A DNA stretch of 62,927 bases, filler included, from Stramenopiles sp. TOSAG23-3 (lineage: Eukaryota): the NCBI GenBank assembly GCA_900128585.1. It is 11 parts of 11 records of this genome, joined end to end, with 100 filler letters (N's around TTAATTAATTAA, not from the genome) between each part and the next. Parts side by side here need not be neighbours in the genome. Positions count along the whole stretch, not along the records: positions 22,969 to 28,601 come from LT643468.1; 10 more parts are not named here. One strand, written 5' to 3'. Made by a program: the position numbers and the translations under genes. Below are positions 6,086 through 57,312 of this stretch, piece by piece; position 1 is the first letter of the stretch; each line of letters starts with the position of its first letter. Below the pieces are notes generated by a model. That model saw only the letters and a program-made list of their open reading frames with translations. It ran no database searches and had not been told where the DNA came from.

Positions 6086-7318
6086 ATGGCCGCACGTCTC
6101 CTACTATTGTTCGTCGGCTGTTTCTCGTTTGTCCGCGGCACCCACATTGTCAGGCCAGAGGACTTTGGGGCTGTTGGGGATGGCAAAGCGAACGATTGGG
6201 TCCCAATACAGAAGTCGGTCGATTCGTGTGTTGGGTACGACGATTGTCGTGTCCTCCTTACGCAGTCGTATCTTTCGGGGTACATTTTGATAAAATCTGA
6301 CAATGTTGACTTTGTCATCACCGGGACGCTCGCAATTTTGCCGAAAACGCAGTACGCCAAGCTTCCGTCGTACAAAAGCTACGACTTCTTATCGAGCGGA
6401 AATTTACCCATAAAGAACGTCCAAGTGACAGGAAACGGGACGATACAGTCCACCTCTCCCATTGATTGGTGGGGATGCAAGTATTTGCCGAACGTCGACT
6501 GCTGGCGGCCAGCGTTTGTTTCCTTCACAAACGTAGAAGGCGTTCGCGTGAACCGTCTGAAATTTGAAAATTCGCCGAACCACAACGTAAAGGTTTACAA
6601 CTGTTCCAACGTGCGAATAGATCAAATCCATATCAAAGCGCCGTCGTTGTCCCCGAACACCGATGGGGTAAATTTTCACGGCGGGAGCGACCAATCGCTG
6701 ACTAATTCCATTATTGAAAATGGCGACGATTGTGTCAGCATAATTGCCAGTGGTGAATTCTTGCCCCAGTGCAAGGTTGCGCCAACGTCGAAAGAATGCC
6801 AAGGGGGGAACGTCGTTGTCCGGAACGTGACCTGTCACCACGGGCACGGCCTGTCCATCGGTGGGGTCCGGCAGGGGACGATAAGGAACGTAACGTTTGA
6901 AAATATCACTGCGACGGGTGGCATGTCCCAAGGCATATACAGCACAGGAGGGCTGCGCATCAAGTCCTACCCAAACGGGTCTGGGTCGGTGAGCAACATC
7001 ATGTACCGGAATATTGTCCTGGACAAAGTTTTCCTGCCCATTGAACTGCAGGCCCGGTATTGCGTATGGCCAAAGAAATGCCCTCCTGACGTCACCGCAA
7101 TCAAGTTTTTCAACATCACATTTGAAAACATTCGAGGGACAAGTTCACAGTGGCATCAAGTCGGTTTGTTGGCCTGCTCAAAAGTTTCTCCTTGCAAAAA
7201 TATAGTCCTCAAAAACGTTGTTTTGGGGGGACGCCACGGCGACGGCAAGTTTGATTGCACCAATACACAAAACGTACAGTTTCTCAATGGCTCTAACCCT
7301 AAAGCTTGCTCTTCTTAA
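6086..7318 (+). CDS. Secreted glycoside hydrolase family 28 (polygalacturonase-like)
   Basis: Signal peptide, DFGAVGDG, and all four GH28 motifs (NTDG, GDD, GHG, RIK). Cys-rich C-terminus. Confidence 0.92.
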   Translation: MAARLLLLFVGCFSFVRGTHIVRPEDFGAVGDGKANDWVPIQKSVDSCVGYDDCRVLLTQSYLSGYILIKSDNVDFVITGTLAILPKTQYAKLPSYKSYDFLSSGNLPIKNVQVTGNGTIQSTSPIDWWGCKYLPNVDCWRPAFVSFTNVEGVRVNRLKFENSPNHNVKVYNCSNVRIDQIHIKAPSLSPNTDGVNFHGGSDQSLTNSIIENGDDCVSIIASGEFLPQCKVAPTSKECQGGNVVVRNVTCHHGHGLSIGGVRQGTIRNVTFENITATGGMSQGIYSTGGLRIKSYPNGSGSVSNIMYRNIVLDKVFLPIELQARYCVWPKKCPPDVTAIKFFNITFENIRGTSSQWHQVGLLACSKVSPCKNIVLKNVVLGGRHGDGKFDCTNTQNVQFLNGSNPKACSS

Positions 7319-22968: not shown

Positions 22969-22970
22969 TC

Positions 22971-25900
22971 ATTTCTATCGAAGCCGATGCATTGACCTCT
23001 GGTAATGCTATTGAAGTATCAAACAAAGGTAATGGGCTGACAACGGGGTCATTGTTGAAGTTGTCTACGACGTTGGAAGGGGGAACTAATTTTTCTGGCA
23101 GTATTGCACACATTGAGGCTGATGGTATGACAGAAGGAGTCGGATTTCGTATTGGTTTACAGGGGTTAGAAAAAGGAACTGGGATTGATTTGTCAAATAA
23201 TGTTAATCTGAAGAGTGGAAAATTATTAAATATTGAAACAAAGTCTTCTTATGCACGAAATCCAGTTGCAATATCAGCACAAAAAGTTCGAAATGGCAAT
23301 ATTTTACAAGTGGAGGGAAAAGACCTCATGTCTGGTTCCGTGTTGGTTTTAACGACGCACGAGGGTAGTACAATGAGCAATGAGGCTGCAGCTAGTTCTG
23401 TTAGCTACGTTCATCAAAATGGTGTTCTAAGAGTGATTACTTCTGTTGGGCAGACTATGACTACATTTGATCAAGTAAGACTTTCGAACTGCTCACCAAG
23501 GATGGAGAACGATGGGGAGTATTTAGTCGAAGATATAAAGAGAGACATTGCAACAGTCTTTACGTGCAGCGTTAGATGTGGTGGTCAGAATTTGACGGTC
23601 ACTTCAACTAGTACAACAGCACCGACAAGCGCACCTACTTCTACAACCACCCAAATTGATACAACGTCTACCACAACTATATCTACCACAACATCAACCG
23701 CGTCCATAAAGATGACGACGACAAATGTTTCCTGGACATCTGAATACTGCAAAAGTTCAGACGATTGTCCGAATGGGAATATTACGGTTTCATATACTGA
23801 AAATACACAGTGTGAGAGGAACAGGTCTGTTTTCTGTGATTTCAGCACACACGAATATTTTTATTTACAACATCTAGATGGCTCTGCCATCACAACATTT
23901 GCTACTACAAACATCACAGAGAATTGCCAAATATCACGATCTAGGGGGAGTATTTTGTCCATCCGAGGAAAAGAGCAAAAGGAGGGTGCATTGTTTGAAG
24001 TGACAAATGATGATCTTGTAGGAGGTAAATTAATTAGTGTTGAAACTTCGTCTTCAACAGCCAAAAATCCAATACTATTTAGTGCGAAGAAGATAAGCAA
24101 TGGGGAAATGTTTAAGGTCCAAGGCGATGAAGTTACTTCAGGCACGATAATGACCGTAACAACCAACTTAGGGTCGAAAATGGTTAATGAAGTTAAAGTG
24201 TCTTCTATTGCAGAAGTTATGGTGGATAACACTGTACGACTTCAAACTATTGTTTCTGAAAAACTGCAACTATACGATAAAATTAGCATCAGCGAATGCT
24301 CAACAAATACAAGCGACAATGGAGACTATATGATTGGCATGATTCTCCGAAACATTACTACAATGTACAGCTGTGATGTGTCTTGTAACAATTCTGAAAT
24401 TGCAGTTTCAACAACAACAATAGTGCAATCGAATACGACAACATCGCCAACCAATACAACATCGCCAACCAATACAACAAACGCAACAAATACAACAAAT
24501 GCAACAACCGTCTCAGCCACCACTACTACAACAGGGGCGCCTTCTGCAAGTTATATCTGCGCCCGAGTTAGTGACTGCCCTGCGGGACATGCAACGGCCT
24601 CATATGTAGAACATAGCCAATGTACAGTAGATACCAATACATTTTGTGCATACAACACTCATGCTGATTTATCTTTAACAACATTGAGTGGAGCACCCAT
24701 CAAACCATCTCTAACCAAAGAGCATGGTGAATCAAACACTTGCAAAATATCAAGAACGGGGGGCAAGCTCTTGAGCGTTGAAGGAAATGCACAATCAGAT
24801 GGCACGCTGCTTGATATTAGTGCCGATGCGTTGGGGTCTGGGAAAGCTTTTTCAGTACACTCATCATCAAAGAACACCTCAGCAAGAAGTCTAGTAACAT
24901 TTGATAACGATGGAGCTGAGGCAACCAAAACACAAGTGGTAACAATAACCCAAAAAGCGTCTAAATCTGATGGTAGTGCCGTTCGACCGGCAGCTGCTCT
25001 CGGCATAAATTCAGCTGTTGATGAAGCTTTGTTTGTTCGTGTCAGCTCGGTAAATACCAATGCAGGGGCTACTTTGACTTTGGCGAGAGACCGTGCCGCA
25101 GACCCCACTGAAATTCCTCAAAGTGTGGCGAATGATGATACTGTCGGAAAGATATCGTTTCAAGGCTTTGTGGACGCCAACAATAGGGTTGAAATTGCGT
25201 CAATATCTTCCATTGTGCAACAAGGGGATGGAGCCGAGATTTCAAATACTTCAATCGGGGGGAAAATAGTGTTATCGACTACAGACAAGAATGGTTATAC
25301 CTTAAAACCCCGTATGGCGATTTCTGAAGCAGGTGCAGAAATGGGTGATGCCCATAGTACATTTCAACTCAGTCGGCCAATTGCAGCTGGCGCAGCCACA
25401 AATTTCACATTATCAGGTCAAAATGCGGGTGATGATTCCAGGAACGGTGGCAACGTGGTATTAGAAGTTGGCCTTGGTGGTGCTAACGCTACCGATGGAA
25501 ATCTTATTTTTAGTGGTGCAGCGCAACTCGGCGCGAAAGACCGCCAGATGTTAGCCCTGGAGACTTTTGCTCATGTTCAGGTAAATCCTGGTGTACTAAA
25601 ACTTGCCAGAGAAGGAAAGCATGACATGGTATCTTCGGTGCACATTAAAAGCCCTGAAATTGCAATAAATAATGGTATGATAGAGAAGACAGCCACTTTA
25701 TACATTGATGGTGCATGGAAAGGTAGTCCGGACAAGAACCTTAGCAAAATAGCAGAGGCCGACGCTGTATTGAGCTCCGGAGAAGTTATACTCAATTCCG
25801 AGTATTTGACCTCTTTCGAAAAAGGAGATTATGTTGAGCTTCAAAAGTGCAAAGAATTCATCAATGTTGGCGATTACATTGTTGGTGATTCTTCTCCAGT

Positions 25901-26117
25901 TTTTAAACGTAATGATTGTCGCTCACTTCCGTGCGCAACAACATATGTTTCAAACTGCTCTACTTCCCAAAATATATCTTGTACTGGTAGTTTCTCGGTG
26001 GTGTCGCTACTGTATGCCAGCAGTAAATTGAAGTTTGCGTTGCAACCAGAAAATGCGTCAACATGTCAAATTATCTTGAAACCTAACCCGTATAATCATC
26101 ATTTGAAGGGAATCTAG
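22971..26117 (+). CDS. Giant repeat protein, segment 1 (5'-partial): beta-strand repeats, phage-fibre-like module, Cys-flanked Thr-rich inserts
   Basis: Frame is open from the contig edge. Repeats of I.AD.L..G..; LARDR...VANDDTVGKISFQG..IASISSIV..GGKIVLSTT..RMAISE; Thr tracts with N-x-T/S sequons. Confidence 0.7.
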   Translation: MSIEADALTSGNAIEVSNKGNGLTTGSLLKLSTTLEGGTNFSGSIAHIEADGMTEGVGFRIGLQGLEKGTGIDLSNNVNLKSGKLLNIETKSSYARNPVAISAQKVRNGNILQVEGKDLMSGSVLVLTTHEGSTMSNEAAASSVSYVHQNGVLRVITSVGQTMTTFDQVRLSNCSPRMENDGEYLVEDIKRDIATVFTCSVRCGGQNLTVTSTSTTAPTSAPTSTTTQIDTTSTTTISTTTSTASIKMTTTNVSWTSEYCKSSDDCPNGNITVSYTENTQCERNRSVFCDFSTHEYFYLQHLDGSAITTFATTNITENCQISRSRGSILSIRGKEQKEGALFEVTNDDLVGGKLISVETSSSTAKNPILFSAKKISNGEMFKVQGDEVTSGTIMTVTTNLGSKMVNEVKVSSIAEVMVDNTVRLQTIVSEKLQLYDKISISECSTNTSDNGDYMIGMILRNITTMYSCDVSCNNSEIAVSTTTIVQSNTTTSPTNTTSPTNTTNATNTTNATTVSATTTTTGAPSASYICARVSDCPAGHATASYVEHSQCTVDTNTFCAYNTHADLSLTTLSGAPIKPSLTKEHGESNTCKISRTGGKLLSVEGNAQSDGTLLDISADALGSGKAFSVHSSSKNTSARSLVTFDNDGAEATKTQVVTITQKASKSDGSAVRPAAALGINSAVDEALFVRVSSVNTNAGATLTLARDRAADPTEIPQSVANDDTVGKISFQGFVDANNRVEIASISSIVQQGDGAEISNTSIGGKIVLSTTDKNGYTLKPRMAISEAGAEMGDAHSTFQLSRPIAAGAATNFTLSGQNAGDDSRNGGNVVLEVGLGGANATDGNLIFSGAAQLGAKDRQMLALETFAHVQVNPGVLKLAREGKHDMVSSVHIKSPEIAINNGMIEKTATLYIDGAWKGSPDKNLSKIAEADAVLSSGEVILNSEYLTSFEKGDYVELQKCKEFINVGDYIVGDSSPVFKRNDCRSLPCATTYVSNCSTSQNISCTGSFSVVSLLYASSKLKFALQPENASTCQIILKPNPYNHHLKGI

Positions 26118-26893
26118 TTGTAGGCGGGGGTTTACAAGTGCATGGAAGAGAATTACTTGCTTATGGAAACTCACAGGCTACGGCGGCACCAATTGGTGAA
26201 GATGACAGCGTAATCCAACTTGTGACAAGCCAACAAAACTTGAGTTGTGTTTTGCCCCCAGCAACACCTGGCAGAACTTTAACAATCAGTCGCACACTTG
26301 AATCTGCAAGTGTTGAATTTCAATTATTCCCTGGTTTAGGCAATCAAGTCAATGGTTTGGGTCTGAATGCTCCCGCCAATATACTACAAAATGAGATTCT
26401 TGTTTTCTGTAACGCTATTAGCGACTCGGAATGGGCTTGCGCAACGAGAACTTATTCAGGTGGACTTTCCATCAAATCACTTGATCTGGTCGGACTTGGT
26501 TATTTGAAAGGCGGGCTGCAAGTAGATGAACTCATGAAAGTAAACACTGGAGTAAATATTCAAATTGAATCGATGATTAATGCTAATGCAGGTTTATTGT
26601 CAAAAACAACTAGCACGTTTGAAGGCCTTGCAACAGCTAAAGGTGGCCTTGTCTCTCAAGACAGCGACTTTACCGTTGTAACCAACGCTAATGACGAAAG
26701 TGCAAATACTATCCAGTTCAAAAAGTCAAGGTCCGATACGGACGGGAACCATGCTGTGTTACAAGAAAATGACAAGCTGGGATCGATTAAGTGGTCAGGA
26801 TCAAACGGGTCAAATTTCAACGCTGCTGCTTCCATACGTGCCGAAGTTTCTGAAGCACCTGGAGCAAATGATATGCCAGGGCGGATAGAATGA
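26096..26893 (+). CDS. Giant repeat protein, segment 2 (after frameshift)
   Basis: SSFEGNLVVGGGLQV parallels SKLEGYLQVSGGIQV in segment 3. Also LPPATPG..FPG..VNG..W and FKKSR..DKLGSIKWSGSNG..APGANDMPGRIE. Confidence 0.65.
   Translation, partial: SSFEGNLVVGGGLQVHGRELLAYGNSQATAAPIGEDDSVIQLVTSQQNLSCVLPPATPGRTLTISRTLESASVEFQLFPGLGNQVNGLGLNAPANILQNEILVFCNAISDSEWACATRTYSGGLSIKSLDLVGLGYLKGGLQVDELMKVNTGVNIQIESMINANAGLLSKTTSTFEGLATAKGGLVSQDSDFTVVTNANDESANTIQFKKSRSDTDGNHAVLQENDKLGSIKWSGSNGSNFNAAASIRAEVSEAPGANDMPGRIE
26608..26883 (+). repeat. 276-bp direct repeat, copy 1 (copy 2 at 28326..28601)
   Basis: Three substitutions seen between the copies. Confidence 0.92.
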
Positions 26894-28601
26894 GCATATC
26901 AGAAAAACAAACTTTAATTTCTCTTGCAGATAACAGAACAGGTGGCTATCAGATTCAAAACACAAACGGTTCTTTTCCCATTTTCTCAATCGACACCGAT
27001 TCCAGTTCTGGAGGAAGTGAGTTAATTAAATTAACATCTAAGTCAATAGACTTCAAGGCGACCGAGTTACTAAAAATAAACGCCAAAAAAATGGAAGTGA
27101 GCGGTGAAGGTTTGGATATTGCATCTGCTGCACTAACGCTGGGTGCTCATGCTGATTTTGCATCTGTTCTTATTAATCCCAGTCAAATTAGAACAATGAA
27201 ATCGCAGAATTACACCGTTTATACATGTAACGTAACATGTGATCAATCTGTAACGACGACAACAGCAATAACAACGACGACAACGCAGGCACCCAGTTCT
27301 AACGCGACGGGTAATGCCACGTCTAATTCGACGAATGCTACGTCTAACTTGACGAATGCCACGTCTAACTCGACGAATGCCACCTCTAACTCAACGAATG
27401 TCAACACAACAATCTCTGCATCAACGACGACATCTGCACCAACCACGACTACTGTCGCAAGTAACACGACTACCAATGTGACCAACACTACCAATAGCTC
27501 CTCTTATAACAGTTCCACAACGACTGCTGTTTCAACCACGACAACATCGATCCCTTTGTCAGCCTGTCAAAACTTAGAAGATTGTACGAATGCTGGAGGA
27601 ACTTATCAGACCTCATACGCGACATCATGCACTCCAACGCCAATTGTTTTTTGCGGGGCGTTAATTGTGCATCCACATTCGTTGGTGACATCTCTGACCG
27701 TGAAAAGCCCACCAATTGATATTTCAACAAATGACGGTACCGTCCAGGAAAGTGCCACATTATACGTTGATGGTTCGTTCGATGATACGGATGGGCATTA
27801 CGCCATGTATGTTAAAGGATCCACATCTCTATCGAAACTTGAAGGGTACTTGCAAGTCAGTGGAGGAATCCAAGTGACTGCAACTAATTATGAGGCAAAA
27901 GGCACGAATCAATCCAGCGCGAAAGGAATTCTAAATTATGAAAGCTCAATAACAGTGGAGACTTCTGCGCATGGACAAGGGCTTAAACTTCCAAGTGCCA
28001 GCGCTGGAAAACAAATCACTTTTGTAAGGGCACAAAACACACATAATTACAATATATACCCAGGCACGGATGCTGTTATAAACGGACAGAGCTCCAACAC
28101 ACCTCTGGTTGTTGGTACTGGTGGAGCCGTAGTACTTTGCTTAGCGTCAGGGCCAATACACTGGAGCTGTGTAACACAAAGCAGCTCGGGTGGGAAAATA
28201 TTTACAGCGATTCAGAGCAACGGAAATGCTTCTCTCACTGGGCACGTTACATTAGGGGATAGCGTCGAGGATACGATAATATCCAAAGGTGTTTTAAGAG
28301 TAGACAGCACCTTTACAGCAAAACAAACTAGCACGTTTGAAGGCCTTGCAACAGCTAAAGGTGGCCTTGTCTCTCAAGACAGCGACTTCACCGTTGTAAC
28401 CAACGCTAATGACGAAAGTGCAAATACTATCCAGTTCAAAAAGTCAAGGTCCAATACGGACGGGAACCATGCTGTGTTACAAGAAAATGACAAGCTGGGA
28501 TCGATTAAGTGGTCAGGATCAGACGGGTCAAATTTCAACGCTGCTGCTTCCATACGTGCCGAAGTTTCTGAAGCACCTGGAGCAAATGATATGCCAGGGC
28601 G
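26890..28601 (+). CDS. Giant repeat protein, segment 3 (after second frameshift; 3'-partial)
   Basis: MSISE parallels RMAISE in segment 1. Contains the same module set and runs off the contig end. Confidence 0.65.
28326..28601 (+). repeat. 276-bp direct repeat, copy 2
   Basis: Near-identical to 26608..26883. Confidence 0.92.
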
Positions 28602-37270: not shown

Positions 37271-38320
37271 TTAGCACCCATCCCCCAAGCAATCTACTTC
37301 CCGCGTCACATTGCCATTACCGTACACCAAATCTCGCAGCCAGTCAACAAACGAGATGTTTTCAGAAACTACGTTGTACATTTCATCACTTTCTGTTATG
37401 ACGTGGATATTGCTGGGGGAAACGAAGCTCGCGTAATTGTCCAGGTTATCGGCCTTTATACCGTTGTGGACGAGAGCAATCGCATTTCGAAACGCTTTTT
37501 TCCAGTTGCACTTCTCGGCACCACAGCCTTCAAAGATGTAAAATGACGTTTGCACGGGGTCACGGTTTGAGATGTAAGAGGCAAACATTGCTTTGGGGTA
37601 GGTCCTGGCCGTAGCGTTCAAATTGGATGCACTGATATAATCTCTCCAACGCCCAATATCCATTCCTTTGACCCGCCTGTCGTACGACGACAAAGAATCC
37701 CAATTATCAAGGCCCCCGTTATAACCCGCCTCCCCAAACAAGGGGGCGTAGCTGTCTCCCAGGTGGTAGTGCTCAGAATTTGGATACATGTCAAAAATTT
37801 TTGGGGCCCAGACGTAGCTTGCAACGCTCCCGGCACTGCCGCCGGTCACAAAAACCTTTCCGGGGTTGTTTGACACGTTTGTTTTCAGCCACTCCAACGC
37901 AGCCTTTGCATTAACCTGCCCAGCATGGTGAACGCCGTAGCCTGGGGTCTTGTTTCCCATGTGTGCGTCTCCCGTGCAGTAAGGAATGTACAAATGGGAC
38001 CATCCCAGGAATGGATTCCTTGGGTCGCTTTGCGAACGAATTCCTCCCGAGTTTTTTAGACTATTTAGCTCGTCCCTTACACTTACTGTTCTCGTGTACG
38101 TCGGACCTAGACATGTCAACCCACTGTAGCAGCAACCCCCGCCTTCGAACTCTACAATAACATTATTCACAGTCCCCGTCCGCGCCATGTAAGCATACTC
38201 CCCGCCATGGGAACATATTGTTGGGGGGCCAGGCCTGAAAGCCTCCCAGTTGTTCGCACCAGCCAACTCGGCGAGGAGAAAACAGACCGAACAAAGGTAA
38301 GCGTTGCTTTTGAAGAACAT
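37271..38320 (-). CDS. Secreted pectin acetylesterase/Notum-family esterase
   Basis: Signal peptide, FEGGGCC, NPFLGW..YIPYCTGDAHMG, and nucleophile motif TGGSAGS. Confidence 0.88.
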   Translation of the reverse strand: MFFKSNAYLCSVCFLLAELAGANNWEAFRPGPPTICSHGGEYAYMARTGTVNNVIVEFEGGGCCYSGLTCLGPTYTRTVSVRDELNSLKNSGGIRSQSDPRNPFLGWSHLYIPYCTGDAHMGNKTPGYGVHHAGQVNAKAALEWLKTNVSNNPGKVFVTGGSAGSVASYVWAPKIFDMYPNSEHYHLGDSYAPLFGEAGYNGGLDNWDSLSSYDRRVKGMDIGRWRDYISASNLNATARTYPKAMFASYISNRDPVQTSFYIFEGCGAEKCNWKKAFRNAIALVHNGIKADNLDNYASFVSPSNIHVITESDEMYNVVSENISFVDWLRDLVYGNGNVTREVDCLGDGC

Positions 38321-44568: not shown

Positions 44569-45771
44569 TCATTTTTTCATACAGGATGCGGCGGCAGTAA
44601 ATCGAGGGCGACAACAAATATTGTCCGACCCTCCTTTGCAGTACCCTTTTTGTAGCACTCCGTCTGTGCAGGAAGACGTGGGTCCGCAGACCCCTACTAT
44701 TTCGTACATGCATGCTTTGCCAGGCTGGCCAATTTCCTTTGAATCGACTTCGAGGAGAAACGTATTTGCTCGCCTTCGCCGCGGCACGCTTGGGACGGGA
44801 ACATGCGGCAACACAGGGCACTCTTTCTTTAGCAATGTAAGGATTTCCCCCAGTTTCTTACTAGACTGCTTTCGGGATTGAAACGTACACCCCACCCCTT
44901 CGCATTTGCGACGAAGGGAGTTTGGCGCGAAATCTTTGGTTTTCTCTCCCGGGTGTGCCCCGTGAGCAACCACTACCCCAGGACATTGCCCCTTTTTGCA
45001 TTTAGCGTCCGTACGTATCAAGTCGACCCTTCTATTAACAGCCCTCCCTGCTGGATTATCTACCGAATTACCATTTATTACCCTATGGTTTGCGTTCACT
45101 GGGTCATTTTCGCCCCGGGTATACTTGCACGTGCGTAAATCCTCTGAAGTGGGGCTGCATTGTTGGGGGTCTTCTATTCGTTTCATGATACTCGGGTCCT
45201 TTCCTGCGATCTCTCTTACACGGGTGTAAACAGCAATCGCACGCCGAAGCCCAAGCTTGAAGTTGTAGTTCCAGCTACCCTTTGAGTCTGTATGCCCTTG
45301 TATCATAATGGTTGCAGTCGGATTTTTCCGTAGAAAGCATACATACAAGTTCAAGATTTCGTCATTTTCAGGAGCAAGTACGTCCGAATCAAACCCAAAT
45401 TTTAAATCCGCACTGAATCGACACGGCATATCCACAGCATTTGTTGTTTTGCAGCATTCTGCAAACGAACACACATTGTCTTTACACCTTGCATTTAGTT
45501 TTTTATCTTCTGTAACAAAAGCGCACTCGTGCACATTATCTGGGCATTCCAGCCCACAGAGAGATTTCCATTTCTTACTTTCCCTTGCACAAGTTTGGGG
45601 TACCTCTTCCTTCTCACAACAATCATCAAACGTACACCCACCTTCGCTCGCGCACTCGTGTTCATTAATGTGCTCGTCGGACTTAATTTTTCCACACTTT
45701 CCCTCTGATTTGGTGTTTTGAAGCTGGAGCAGAAACATGGTGTGGGCCCTTCGGTATCGTTTTGCTGGCGC
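44569..45771 (-). CDS. 5'-partial Cys-rich protein with OmpA-like C-terminal (peptidoglycan-binding) domain and a C-terminal six-Cys beta-defensin-like module
   Basis: Frame is open to the contig edge (APAKRYRRAHTMFLLQL). OmpA motifs: FGFDSDVL..IQGHTDSKGSWNYNFKLGLRRAIAV..GENDP..GRAVNRRVD. Cys module: C-x7-C-x5-C-x9-C-x7-CC. Confidence 0.85.
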   Translation of the reverse strand, partial: APAKRYRRAHTMFLLQLQNTKSEGKCGKIKSDEHINEHECASEGGCTFDDCCEKEEVPQTCARESKKWKSLCGLECPDNVHECAFVTEDKKLNARCKDNVCSFAECCKTTNAVDMPCRFSADLKFGFDSDVLAPENDEILNLYVCFLRKNPTATIMIQGHTDSKGSWNYNFKLGLRRAIAVYTRVREIAGKDPSIMKRIEDPQQCSPTSEDLRTCKYTRGENDPVNANHRVINGNSVDNPAGRAVNRRVDLIRTDAKCKKGQCPGVVVAHGAHPGEKTKDFAPNSLRRKCEGVGCTFQSRKQSSKKLGEILTLLKKECPVLPHVPVPSVPRRRRANTFLLEVDSKEIGQPGKACMYEIVGVCGPTSSCTDGVLQKGYCKGGSDNICCRPRFTAAASCMKK

Positions 45772-45773
45772 AT

Positions 45774-45873
45774 NNNNNNNNNNNNNNNNNNNNNNNNNNN
45801 NNNNNNNNNNNNNNNNNTTAATTAATTAANNNNNNNNNNNNNNNNNNNNNNNNNNNNNNNNNNNNNNNNNNNN
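45774..45873. other. Artificial contig linker
   Basis: N44-TTAATTAATTAA-N44. Confidence 0.98.
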
Positions 45874-55541: not shown

Positions 55542-57133
55542 TCACTCCGCAACACATGGATACTCAATTGGTTTTATGTTAGCGACGCCAAGCCTGCTGC
55601 TCTTGAGGTACCGCTTCCTGATGACCAGCAGCGTGTTGTCCTTATTAAATGACAGAGCGTGCATGTCGCAAATGGCTGTCACGCACTCCCTCAGGCTACT
55701 CCAGCGATACCCACTTATTGCACTCAACCAGGCTTCCCAGAAGGGCTTTTTCAAGCACTGCAGGGCACGAATTATACAAGCCGCCGCAACTTTTGAAGGT
55801 TGCACGGACACCGACACGAGGTATTCCTGCAAAGACAGCTCTGCCAGGTACTTTGACAACGGCGCGACCCGCCCATCTTCAAAATAAGGGCAGTGTTCAA
55901 GGTACATGTTCAGAAAGTCCAGGACGGTGGAAGACGACAGTTTGAACTCCAACGAGTTGAGAACTTTCTCTTCCAGGCTCAGGACATGCTTGGAATGGTA
56001 GACATTGTCCGCGCAGACGGCAAGGTCGTCAACTCCAATGTACGAAACGTCTTCACATTTTGAGGCTATGTGAAGGCAAGTGGCCCCAAGAAGCTGGAAT
56101 TTGCTACGGCTGATTACGGTGGTGCCTAAGTATCGGTCCACGTACTGGACGGCAAGGAATGCGCTTCGCAGGCTCATTTCGAACACGTCCACCACCTCGA
56201 TCAACCAATCGACCAGCATGGCGCGGTGGTTCTGCCGCAATTCGTTTTGAAGCGGCAGGTAATCACGGAAAGGGAAACGGGAACTTTCTAAGCTGCGAAT
56301 GTAGGCGTGGTAATTTCCAAGGAACTGCAAATCGTACCCCCCAATCTGGTACGCCAGTCGAGAACTCTCGATGAACGACGAGCACGGCTGAATGCCCGCT
56401 TCGCCGTCCACCAGCCCAAGTGCACGGAGGCCACGGAGGGGGGGGAACGATAGCTTTTCCCCTTTCGCGGGACTATTCGACGTCAAGGCGTTGCTCCCGT
56501 CAAAATACGAGCATGACAGGGCGTCCTCTGCCGTAGTGCGCTTTCGAGGGTCTAATGCCAGGAGCCCTGACAGCACACTTCTCGCGGCTGGCTCTAGGGC
56601 GGGCAGGACTTTCGTCAGGTCTTTCGGCTTCCAGTTGGGGAAAGAAAATCTATAGTTGGGCAAGCTCTTGAACTCGGGCCAATCGCTTGCAGGAGTCCCT
56701 AAGGTGCTAAATATCTGAAAAAGTTGGTCGATCTCGCAGATTCCTGGGAAAAAGGGTCTACCAAGGGCCATTTCGGCGAAAATGCACCCTATAGACCACA
56801 TGTCAACAGGAAGAAAGTACCGGTCCCCCATCAGCACCTCCGGAGGCCGGTACCACAGCGTCACCACCTCCGTGGTGTACGTTCGGAGGGGGATGCAGGT
56901 GGACCGCACCAGTGCAAAATCGGACACTTGCAAGCGGGCTTTTGATACGTCCCCGTCGGGGCCCAACTTGATAAGCAAATGTTTTGGTTTCAAGTTTCTA
57001 TGGACAACGCCACGGCGATGACAATACGCAATCGCGCCGATGAGTTGGTGCATGAACATTTTAATGACGCCTTTGCTGAGGGGCTTCCCCCCGGTCGGGT
57101 TCTTGGCCGGGTTTATCAAATCGTACATGGTGC
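55542..57133 (-). CDS. CDK-like (pseudo)kinase domain fused to an A/B-type cyclin; 5'-truncated by a fold-back junction
   Basis: Kinase: HRNLKPKHLL, SDFALVR, YTTEVVTLWYRPPE, DMWSIGCIFAEM, EIDQLFQIF..LGTP. Cyclin box: HRAMLVDWLIEV..VDRYL..FQLLGATCLHIASKCED, then YLAELSL and PSKVAAA. Confidence 0.9.
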
Positions 57134-57212
57134 ACGATGGGGGGAAGCCGGTCAACCATGCCGAGGCAGGCGCAAAGGACCAGCGTAAACTTGAGCAGGC
57201 GAACCGGCGCAA
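57134..57212. repeat. Right arm of 79-bp terminal inverted repeat of contig 10 (Rab coding sequence)
   Basis: Exact reverse complement of 51594..51672. Confidence 0.95.
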
Positions 57213-57312
57213 NNNNNNNNNNNNNNNNNNNNNNNNNNNNNNNNNNNNNNNNNNNNTTAATTAATTAANNNNNNNNNNNNNNNNNNNNNNNNNNNNNNNN
57301 NNNNNNNNNNNN
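57213..57312. other. Artificial contig linker
   Basis: N44-TTAATTAATTAA-N44. Confidence 0.98.

Follow-up and report, generated by a model that had tools for sequence, protein, structure and literature searches.

A 62,927-nucleotide stretch of DNA from Stramenopiles sp. TOSAG23-3 (assembly GCA_900128585.1; the window) joins 11 contigs of about 5.6 kb each through N-linkers, and contigs that stand side by side in it are not genomic neighbours. We are concerned here with positions 22969–28601 (LT643468.1), which are the entire 5,633-bp contig G000:C3164, bounded by N/TTAATTAATTAA/N linkers. This contig is read as an internal part of one giant mosaic fibre gene, in which modules homologous to parts of phage tails alternate with inserts of a secretory type, and it is very probable that the gene encodes a host-encoded secreted fibre; on sequence evidence, it most likely belongs to the host. 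The fuller proposal, a MAST-4-like stramenopile nuclear gene from a giant secreted mosaic fibre family that was built from phage tail modules and has a role in adhesion or prey capture, has in our judgement an even chance of being right. Such a chain appears to be known in kind, as a mosaic like phage fibres and like the mosaic adhesive trimers (MATs) of Bdellovibrio bacteriovorus, found here in an unexpected host and with a function that is proposed from its modules.

The contig is coding on the + strand over about 1,875 codons. An earlier note on this DNA had described a single coding direction, open at both ends and longer than 1870 aa; the direction, the open ends and the single gene all stand, but the letters of the window fall into three overlapping frames, 22971–26114 (1,048 aa, P0001), 26096–26890 (265 aa, P0002) and 26872–28599 (576 aa, P0003). 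To check the breaks between them, positions 22969–28300 were aligned with contigs from four public runs, one being the possible source, another a DNA metagenome and the remaining two metatranscriptomes. At the first break (26101/26102), all four runs carry extra letters, of which a net 37 nt are absent from the assembly, and P0005, a relative labelled MAST-4, is continuous across the site. At the second (26883/26884), a 348-nt repeat node extends 72 letters beyond 26883 in all four runs, and 43 of those 72 letters are absent from the window, as judged from contig C6987. Both 37 and 43 are of the form 3n+1, in agreement with the observed frame shifts. Both breaks are assembly losses, and thus the single protein is correct for the organism but is not what the letters in the window spell. 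A pseudogene is ruled out, the absent 37 nt being present in 4/4 runs and the 43 nt in the repeat node; introns at the breaks are likewise ruled out, as P0005 aligns through both and letters are absent rather than extra. At the other end, C6987 shares a 26-nt end overlap with C3164 and extends the gene 3′ by about 190 codons, which brings it to at least about 2,090 codons with both ends still open; a loose end at 26916 in all four runs matches C6987 as well. No match in the assembly was found for a loose end at 23059, and C3099 is a candidate 5′ neighbour by style only. The four runs differ at 12 places across 5.3 kb, one of them within the collapsed repeat; six of the 12 are synonymous, a number too small to show selection. 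RNA and DNA contigs agree, no intron being seen in C3164, and the stretch is present (at least half of its words) in 20 of the 24 listed public runs; apart from the possible source, 13 studies are represented, seven of which have runs on record as RNA.

The first link to phages is the KSR..PGANDMPG unit. The motif FKKSR..LQENDKLGSIKWSG occurs twice, at 26717–26809 and 28435–28527, within a 283-nt direct repeat whose copies are 98% identical, and a hidden Markov model (HMM) locates the diverged third copy that had been noticed by eye at P0001 695–784 (independent E-value 1.9e-6). This HMM was built solely from 210 public modules, and three of three host control proteins were without a match. 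Compared with the tail fibres of PHROG, the unit matches phrog_18345 (E 1.7e-13) and phrog_9942 (E 1.5e-12), and it occurs in 29 of 50,697 phage records, all of them Synechococcus or Prochlorococcus phages, with identities of 35–49% over 55–125 aa in the best 20 of the 29; in one record, the annotation places the unit within an endosialidase-chaperone protein whose gene lies close to that of a tail fibre. A phmmer search of 1.84 billion proteins returned 6,321 at E ≤ 0.001, with the KSR unit as the best-matching stretch in nearly all of the best 150 of these. Together, these matches bear out the view of the earlier note that the unit is a homologue of phage tail fibres. In a tree of 129 rows and 85 columns, using one module per public protein (121 of the 210), the three canonical protist copies make up one side of a branch, and the five diverged protist copies likewise make up one side of a branch of their own; with 67 of 121 forks open, the tree points to no donor.

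The second link is the LP.A..G domain. LP.A..G and (F/Y)PG..NG occur twice each, as first seen, and the combined motif was found in 0 of 2,000 shuffles. A model folded from nine sequences (predicted local distance difference test, pLDDT, 86.7) was used in a structure search, in which 5 of 48,161 chains scored Z ≥ 8, all phage virion proteins, and the next unrelated rows scored Z ≤ 4.7. The best of these is gp83 of Acinetobacter phage Solidus (24qj; Z 11.1, root-mean-square deviation 1.8, 85 aligned), and 7rej gave Z 10.1, a deviation of 2.5 and 95 aligned. The fold is thus that of the XD domains of T4 gp9/gp10 and CBA120 TSP4 (7rej, 7rfv, 1qex, 2fl8, 9f4a) and of 24qj, with Z of 9.3–11.1, and the assignment to phage tails holds; the identity, however, is 8–21%, and the protist copies are Cys-paired and repeated along a chain read as secreted. 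A cluster match of the domain (score 0.94) carries T4_gp9_10_N on 11% of the cluster, and an HMM finds eight XD copies in seven proteins, the protist copies with a conserved Cys pair. Among viral models (BFVD), 131 match at E ≤ 0.001; within the best 50 of these, most are from tailed phages and a few from Klosneuvirus, Pithovirus or ChoanoV1. A giant-virus likeness, which the earlier note had extended to the modules in general, therefore applies to the LP.A..G fold but not to the other modules. Excerpts of PMC8825819 describe the XD domains of CBA120 TSP4 as belonging to a trimer and docking other spikes, and assign such domains a role in protein–protein assembly in both T4 gp10 and TSP4.

The remaining modules are less phage-like. 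All three barrel modules were recovered by an iterated HMM, whereas two strict regular expressions each found two of the three (the first matched 0 of 2,000 shuffles). The barrels have no Pfam match above cut-off, and their profile had no significant match in the PDB (best E 0.021). E1_FCCH barrels (PF16190; phrog_584) are known from phage tail and surface proteins, and the paralogous contigs C758 and C1478 carry true copies at positions equivalent to the barrels; those of C3164 align with these copies weakly (probability 5%, E 0.0076) and are at best distant FCCH-like domains. For the barrel and solenoid modules, neither PHROG nor tblastn against phages gave a viral sequence match; tblastn returned nothing for P0001 or for two parts of C6536. 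A single-sequence model shows regular short strands in the 5′ repeats of the first frame, where it is unreliable (pLDDT about 50), and its pLDDT over the first 610 aa is 34; for P0001 590–930, the ESM Atlas gave nothing beyond leads below 0.9. N-X-S/T sequons number 21 in P0003 against 12.7 in shuffles (7/1,000 as high), 24 in P0001 against 16.8 (30/1,000) and 48 in C3099 against 28.7 (0/300). The Cys content of P0001 is 2.1%, compared with a median of 0.29% and a maximum of 1.31% among 156 public proteins. The modules are arranged along C3164 as follows (other contig names refer to contigs of the same genome).

22971..28601, + strand: internal part of one giant mosaic fibre gene, about 1,875 codons (about 1,900 with the lost segments), continuing 3′ into C6987
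22971..23385, + strand: short beta-strand repeats, probably solenoid- or beta-helix-like, common to C758, C6536, C3099, C1478 and C5151
23388..23579, + strand: Cys-containing barrel module 1, weakly FCCH-like (iterated HMM)
23589..23741, + strand: Thr-rich mucin-like stalk, inserted after barrel 1
24195..24386, + strand: barrel module 2 (iterated HMM)
24402..24545, + strand: Thr/Asn-rich stalk with N-X-T sequons
25053..25322, + strand: diverged KSR..PGxNDMPGR phage fibre unit, with further copies in C6536, C758 (twice) and P0005
25746..25934, + strand: barrel module 3 (iterated HMM)
26101..26102, no strand: frame break 1, 37 nt lost (4/4 runs; P0005 continuous)
26177..26464, + strand: LP.A..G domain 1, a T4 gp9/gp10 XD-type beta domain (HMM, fold search)
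26601..26883, + strand: copy 1 of the 283-nt repeat, with a canonical KSR unit at 26690–26883
26883..26884, no strand: frame break 2, 43 nt lost relative to the repeat node and C6987
27271..27561, + strand: long Thr/Ser/Asn stalk that contains tandem units of 21 nt and is dense in N-X-S/T sequons
27913..28194, + strand: LP.A..G (XD-type) domain 2 (motif, HMM)
28319..28601, + strand: copy 2 of the 283-nt repeat, with a canonical KSR unit at 28408–28599; the contig stops at the repeat branch point

The earlier note had left the choice between a domesticated host fibre and a virus gene, and it is the host option that is favoured, by the MAST-4-labelled relative and by paralogues that lie with host genes or have a signal peptide. 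The relative, 'Stramenopile-MAST_4_protein_4251' of EukProt (P0005), is collinear with the three frames at identities of 42%, 50% and 45%, covers nearly the entire second frame, is one of the best 150 phmmer matches and was the sole relative found among 1,993 candidates. No 18S gene was found in a restricted search of the genome, and the host lineage therefore depends on the label of P0005. Word-based protein searches with P0001 found nothing, and they carry no weight, since they missed P0005 as well; locus scans gave no relatives in IMG/VR (three scans), JGI metagenomes or GTDB, a weak result, as near-exact 8-mers are needed.

Related frames were found in the same genome on C758, C6536, C3099, C1478, C5151, C4545, C6987, C276, C2885, C3384 and C6935, some of which may be pieces of the same genes. 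The paralogues diverge strongly (25–43% identity), with swapped modules and different ends. On C6536 (26.7 kb), which also bears myosin and LRR/EF-hand genes, the C-terminus of a fibre that ends in an XD domain lies 0.8 kb from a eukaryotic aspartyl protease gene. C276 starts with Met and a hydrophobic leader that reads as a signal peptide by hydropathy and by eye (12-residue hydropathy 3.1); the start of the C3164 gene lies outside the contig. A 79-nt overlap connects C276 with the open 3,785-aa frame of C758, and the two combined would come to about 4,300 aa; the join is likely, yet unproven, because C276 bears an inverted copy of the 79 nt at its other end (1–79 recurs at 1776–1854, L040; possibly an amplification chimera), and the C276–C758 paralogue is probably longer than 4,300 aa. 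The start of C3099 is homologous to the mature N-terminus of C276, the two having their own shared N-terminal domain, and there are thus at least two genes in the family. The second frame of C3099 holds seven barrel copies; between its 304-aa and 1,738-aa frames, a frame change at 770–914 (L027) may be one more small loss of the assembly. A second marine-phage fibre repeat (phrog_38058; pelagiphage matches) is present on C2885 and can also be seen in C276 and C3384. An open 885-aa frame on C5615 (L002) has beta-helix-like repeats, a stalk in the N-A-T-S-N style of C3164 and a DNA match to the stalk in the window.

Peptidase_S74, the C-terminal chaperone of phage tail fibres of the phrog_18345/9942 type, was not found in C3164 or C6987, the gene end lying outside both, but a search of the genome gave ten matches on nine contigs. 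Two of these, C29 and C635, are S74 fibre ends among host genes, with no tested module in common with the C3164 gene. C29 (L058:8676–9998, minus) has phage tail matches, S74, a coiled region and a C-terminal hydrophobic helix, and adjoins a host AAA gene; self-cleavage could release the fibre from a membrane anchor. C635 (L057:242–1562, minus), near a DM10/EF-hand gene, has a hydrophobic helix upstream, a candidate in-phase 52-nt GT-AG intron, a fibre and S74, and is a probable type II membrane fibre. On C3635, C4904 and C2391 (L061–L063) and on C4034, Peptidase_S74 is fused to NB-ARC plus TPR or ankyrin repeats, with two S74 on C2391. Taken with the family contigs, C29 and C635 point to a repertoire whose ends are of XD, S74 or membrane-anchored type. 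These multi-gene mosaics have two N-termini, and they end in XD (C6536), S74 (C635) or S74 plus helix (C29).

The MATs are among the closest known systems. Profile A1 combines P0002 and two protist segments with 20 public phage-like KSR proteins, 23 rows in all. It reached only four PDB sequences at E ≤ 1, all of them Bdellovibrio MAT fibres (E 4.7e-6 to 1e-4), while neither P0002 alone nor protist-only profiles matched the MAT structures. Excerpts of PMC10769870 describe MATs as trimeric phage-fibre-like proteins that bear signal peptides and are displayed on the surface of the predator; S74 is present in some and absent from others, and one MAT binds prey glycans. The entries given there are Bd1334 (8OML, 8ON4), Bd2439 (8OL4) and Bd2133 (8OND). 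[quoted passage not shown] Both systems are multi-gene, phage-fibre-like mosaics with swapped ends with and without S74, and both would belong to a cellular predator of bacteria; a leader read as a signal peptide is seen in the paralogue C276, and A1 reaches the MAT shaft unit. In contrast to MATs of about 1,000 aa, the protist fibres are eukaryotic, range in length from at least 2,000 aa to probably more than 4,300 aa, and have internal XD domains, Cys barrels and glyco-stalks; the match is indirect, and it is only in the MATs that display at the surface and binding of glycans are established. Since the link is transitive, what we claim is a common unit in the shaft and a likeness in design, but not that the protist fibres are MATs. 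Cyanophage tail fibres and S74-capped fibres (phrog_18345, phrog_9942; Synechococcus phage WH11-B XYR95432.1, P-TIM68, S-CBP4) share the repeated KSR..D.LG.I.F.G.DG..PG.NDMPGRL.F unit, about 85 aa per unit being common. They differ in that the protist chain has inserts of a secretory type, lacks S74 over its known portion and shows no virion gene context in C3164; neighbours are known only for the paralogue C6536, and these are host genes. In MYRF / MrfA, a phage tail part (S74/ICA) was domesticated by eukaryotes. These are transcription factors that keep the chaperone-protease only, whereas the protist keeps the fibre shaft itself. The MYRF–S74 link is stated in excerpts of PMC10769870.

Several observations weigh against the host fibre with an adhesive role. 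C3164 is without a neighbouring gene, start or end, and for that reason the signal peptide, tip and host linkage are taken from paralogues; one relative only was found outside this genome, and it shows no sequon excess (491/1,000 shuffles as high). The MAT match passes through a profile in which 20 of 23 rows are public phage-like proteins, the RNA evidence consists of contigs with no silent control, from which level and strand are not readable, and no result here bears on prey binding itself. The composition of C3164 is also unlike that of its companions: its G+C content is 0.429 against 0.453–0.511 in the other ten contigs of the window, which hold ordinary eukaryotic genes (bZIP, RINGv, RCC1-FYVE, AAA/Vps4_C), its G+C at third codon positions is 0.33–0.39 against 0.49–0.71 in 9/9 window host genes measured, and, judged by codon usage, the first frame resembles a virus-like contig of the assembly as closely as it does low-GC host genes (−1.187 against −1.190 per codon). 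The ambiguous codon usage makes C3164 compatible with an origin in a eukaryotic virus, and a virion fibre of a giant virus or Polinton-like virus, endogenous or co-assembled, would also fit the absence of a visible intron and the XD fold shared with some giant-virus proteins. The assembly does contain a virus-like contig of 22 kb and G+C 0.36 (C6602; L059, L066, L067). It encodes an S74 fibre, a RING protein, a helicase of the origin-binding type and a protein with a double jelly roll, and probably stems from a small DNA virus that is Polinton-like or similar, either endogenous or co-assembled. However, the four module types tested are all absent from the C6602 fibre, C6602 is unlinked to C3164, the paralogues C6536, C758, C276 and C3099 either lie with host genes or use codons much as the host does, and no related locus appeared in the IMG/VR scans, which bear on close relatives only; we thus regard a viral gene as improbable. 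Capsid_NCLDV had no match in G000, where no positive control was detected either. A contaminant from an ingested phage or bacterium would account for a best-conserved unit of cyanophage type, and excerpts of PMC8237690 have MAST-4 eating bacteria and perhaps viruses. That account is already largely refuted and seems very improbable: the Cys-rich, sequon-rich and mucin-like inserts are unlike the public matches, the family spans at least ten contigs, one of which also bears host genes, no phage match was obtained for P0001, and GTDB gave no locus (weak).

If the fibre is a secreted one of the host, its role can be considered. For prey capture, the chain would enter the endoplasmic reticulum, become disulphide-bonded and be N/O-glycosylated on its stalks; three chains would wind into a beta-prism or beta-helix fibre, with XD domains as trimer nodes or docking points; and the fibre would project from the cell and bind surface polymers of bacteria or particles, a binding that may help capture by analogy with the Bdellovibrio MAT fibres. 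If the Bd3182 model (550 angstrom) is taken as the scale, a chain of 4,300 aa could measure about 0.25–0.3 micrometres on a cell of 2–5 micrometres. The main rival to this adhesive fibre is a structural one, in which the same host and secretion evidence describes a cell coat, flagellar-hair filament or extrusome thread whose XD domains cross-link a mesh. In its favour, XD domains mediate assembly in T4 gp10 and TSP4 (excerpts of PMC8825819) and here lie mid-chain rather than at the tip only, and the 12 differences per 5.3 kb in four runs are fewer than a diversifying prey receptor might show. Yet the divergence, swapped modules and different ends of the paralogues are as in an adhesin repertoire, and Pfam gave C3164 no above-cut-off match to any structural family, so we hold the structural role to be rather unlikely. 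A fibre directed against viruses or competitors, as a virion decoy or trap or as an attachment shield, would draw on parts of virion adhesion machinery and has a parallel in the S74 domains of NLR-like proteins in this genome, but tail-fibre parts bind cells, not virions. With no direct evidence for it, a decoy is markedly less probable than the structural role.

Four other loci of the window are recorded here. A CDK-like kinase is continuous with a cyclin-like region in one open frame (55542–57260, minus; by eye). Two pectin-type enzymes in a marine bacterivore are a secreted GH28 (6086–7315) and a pectinacetylesterase-like protein (37274–38320; by eye). An OmpA-like domain motif, possibly a peptidoglycan binder, lies in a Cys-rich protein of eukaryotic style (44569–45825, minus; by eye).

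MAST-4 flagellates are counted among the main grazers of marine bacteria in excerpts of PMC8237690 and PMC10268365. In the portions of the literature consulted, no prey-binding protein was found named for them, and the open-access portions yielded no publication that describes fibres of phage type in flagellates, whether MAST or others; the word 'phage' is absent from the main texts of PMC10268365, PMC8237690 and PMC13724720, as far as these were available, and their supplements could list such genes. Genes of this type may be overlooked because repeats scatter them over contigs and small assembly losses mimic pseudogenes. Should the fibre be structural, whole phage fibre shafts re-tooled for eukaryotic secretion would still widen known virus-to-eukaryote domestication. 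If the chains are prey adhesins, single domains would be screenable against bacterial surfaces despite the organism being uncultured. More tentatively, and at somewhat less than even confidence, this abundant, uncultured bacterivorous flagellate may recognise and hold its bacterial prey by displaying a repertoire of glycosylated fibres, each thousands of residues in length and made from several independently captured phage tail modules. Such a eukaryotic counterpart of the MATs would offer a first molecular way into the question of how marine picoflagellates select their prey.

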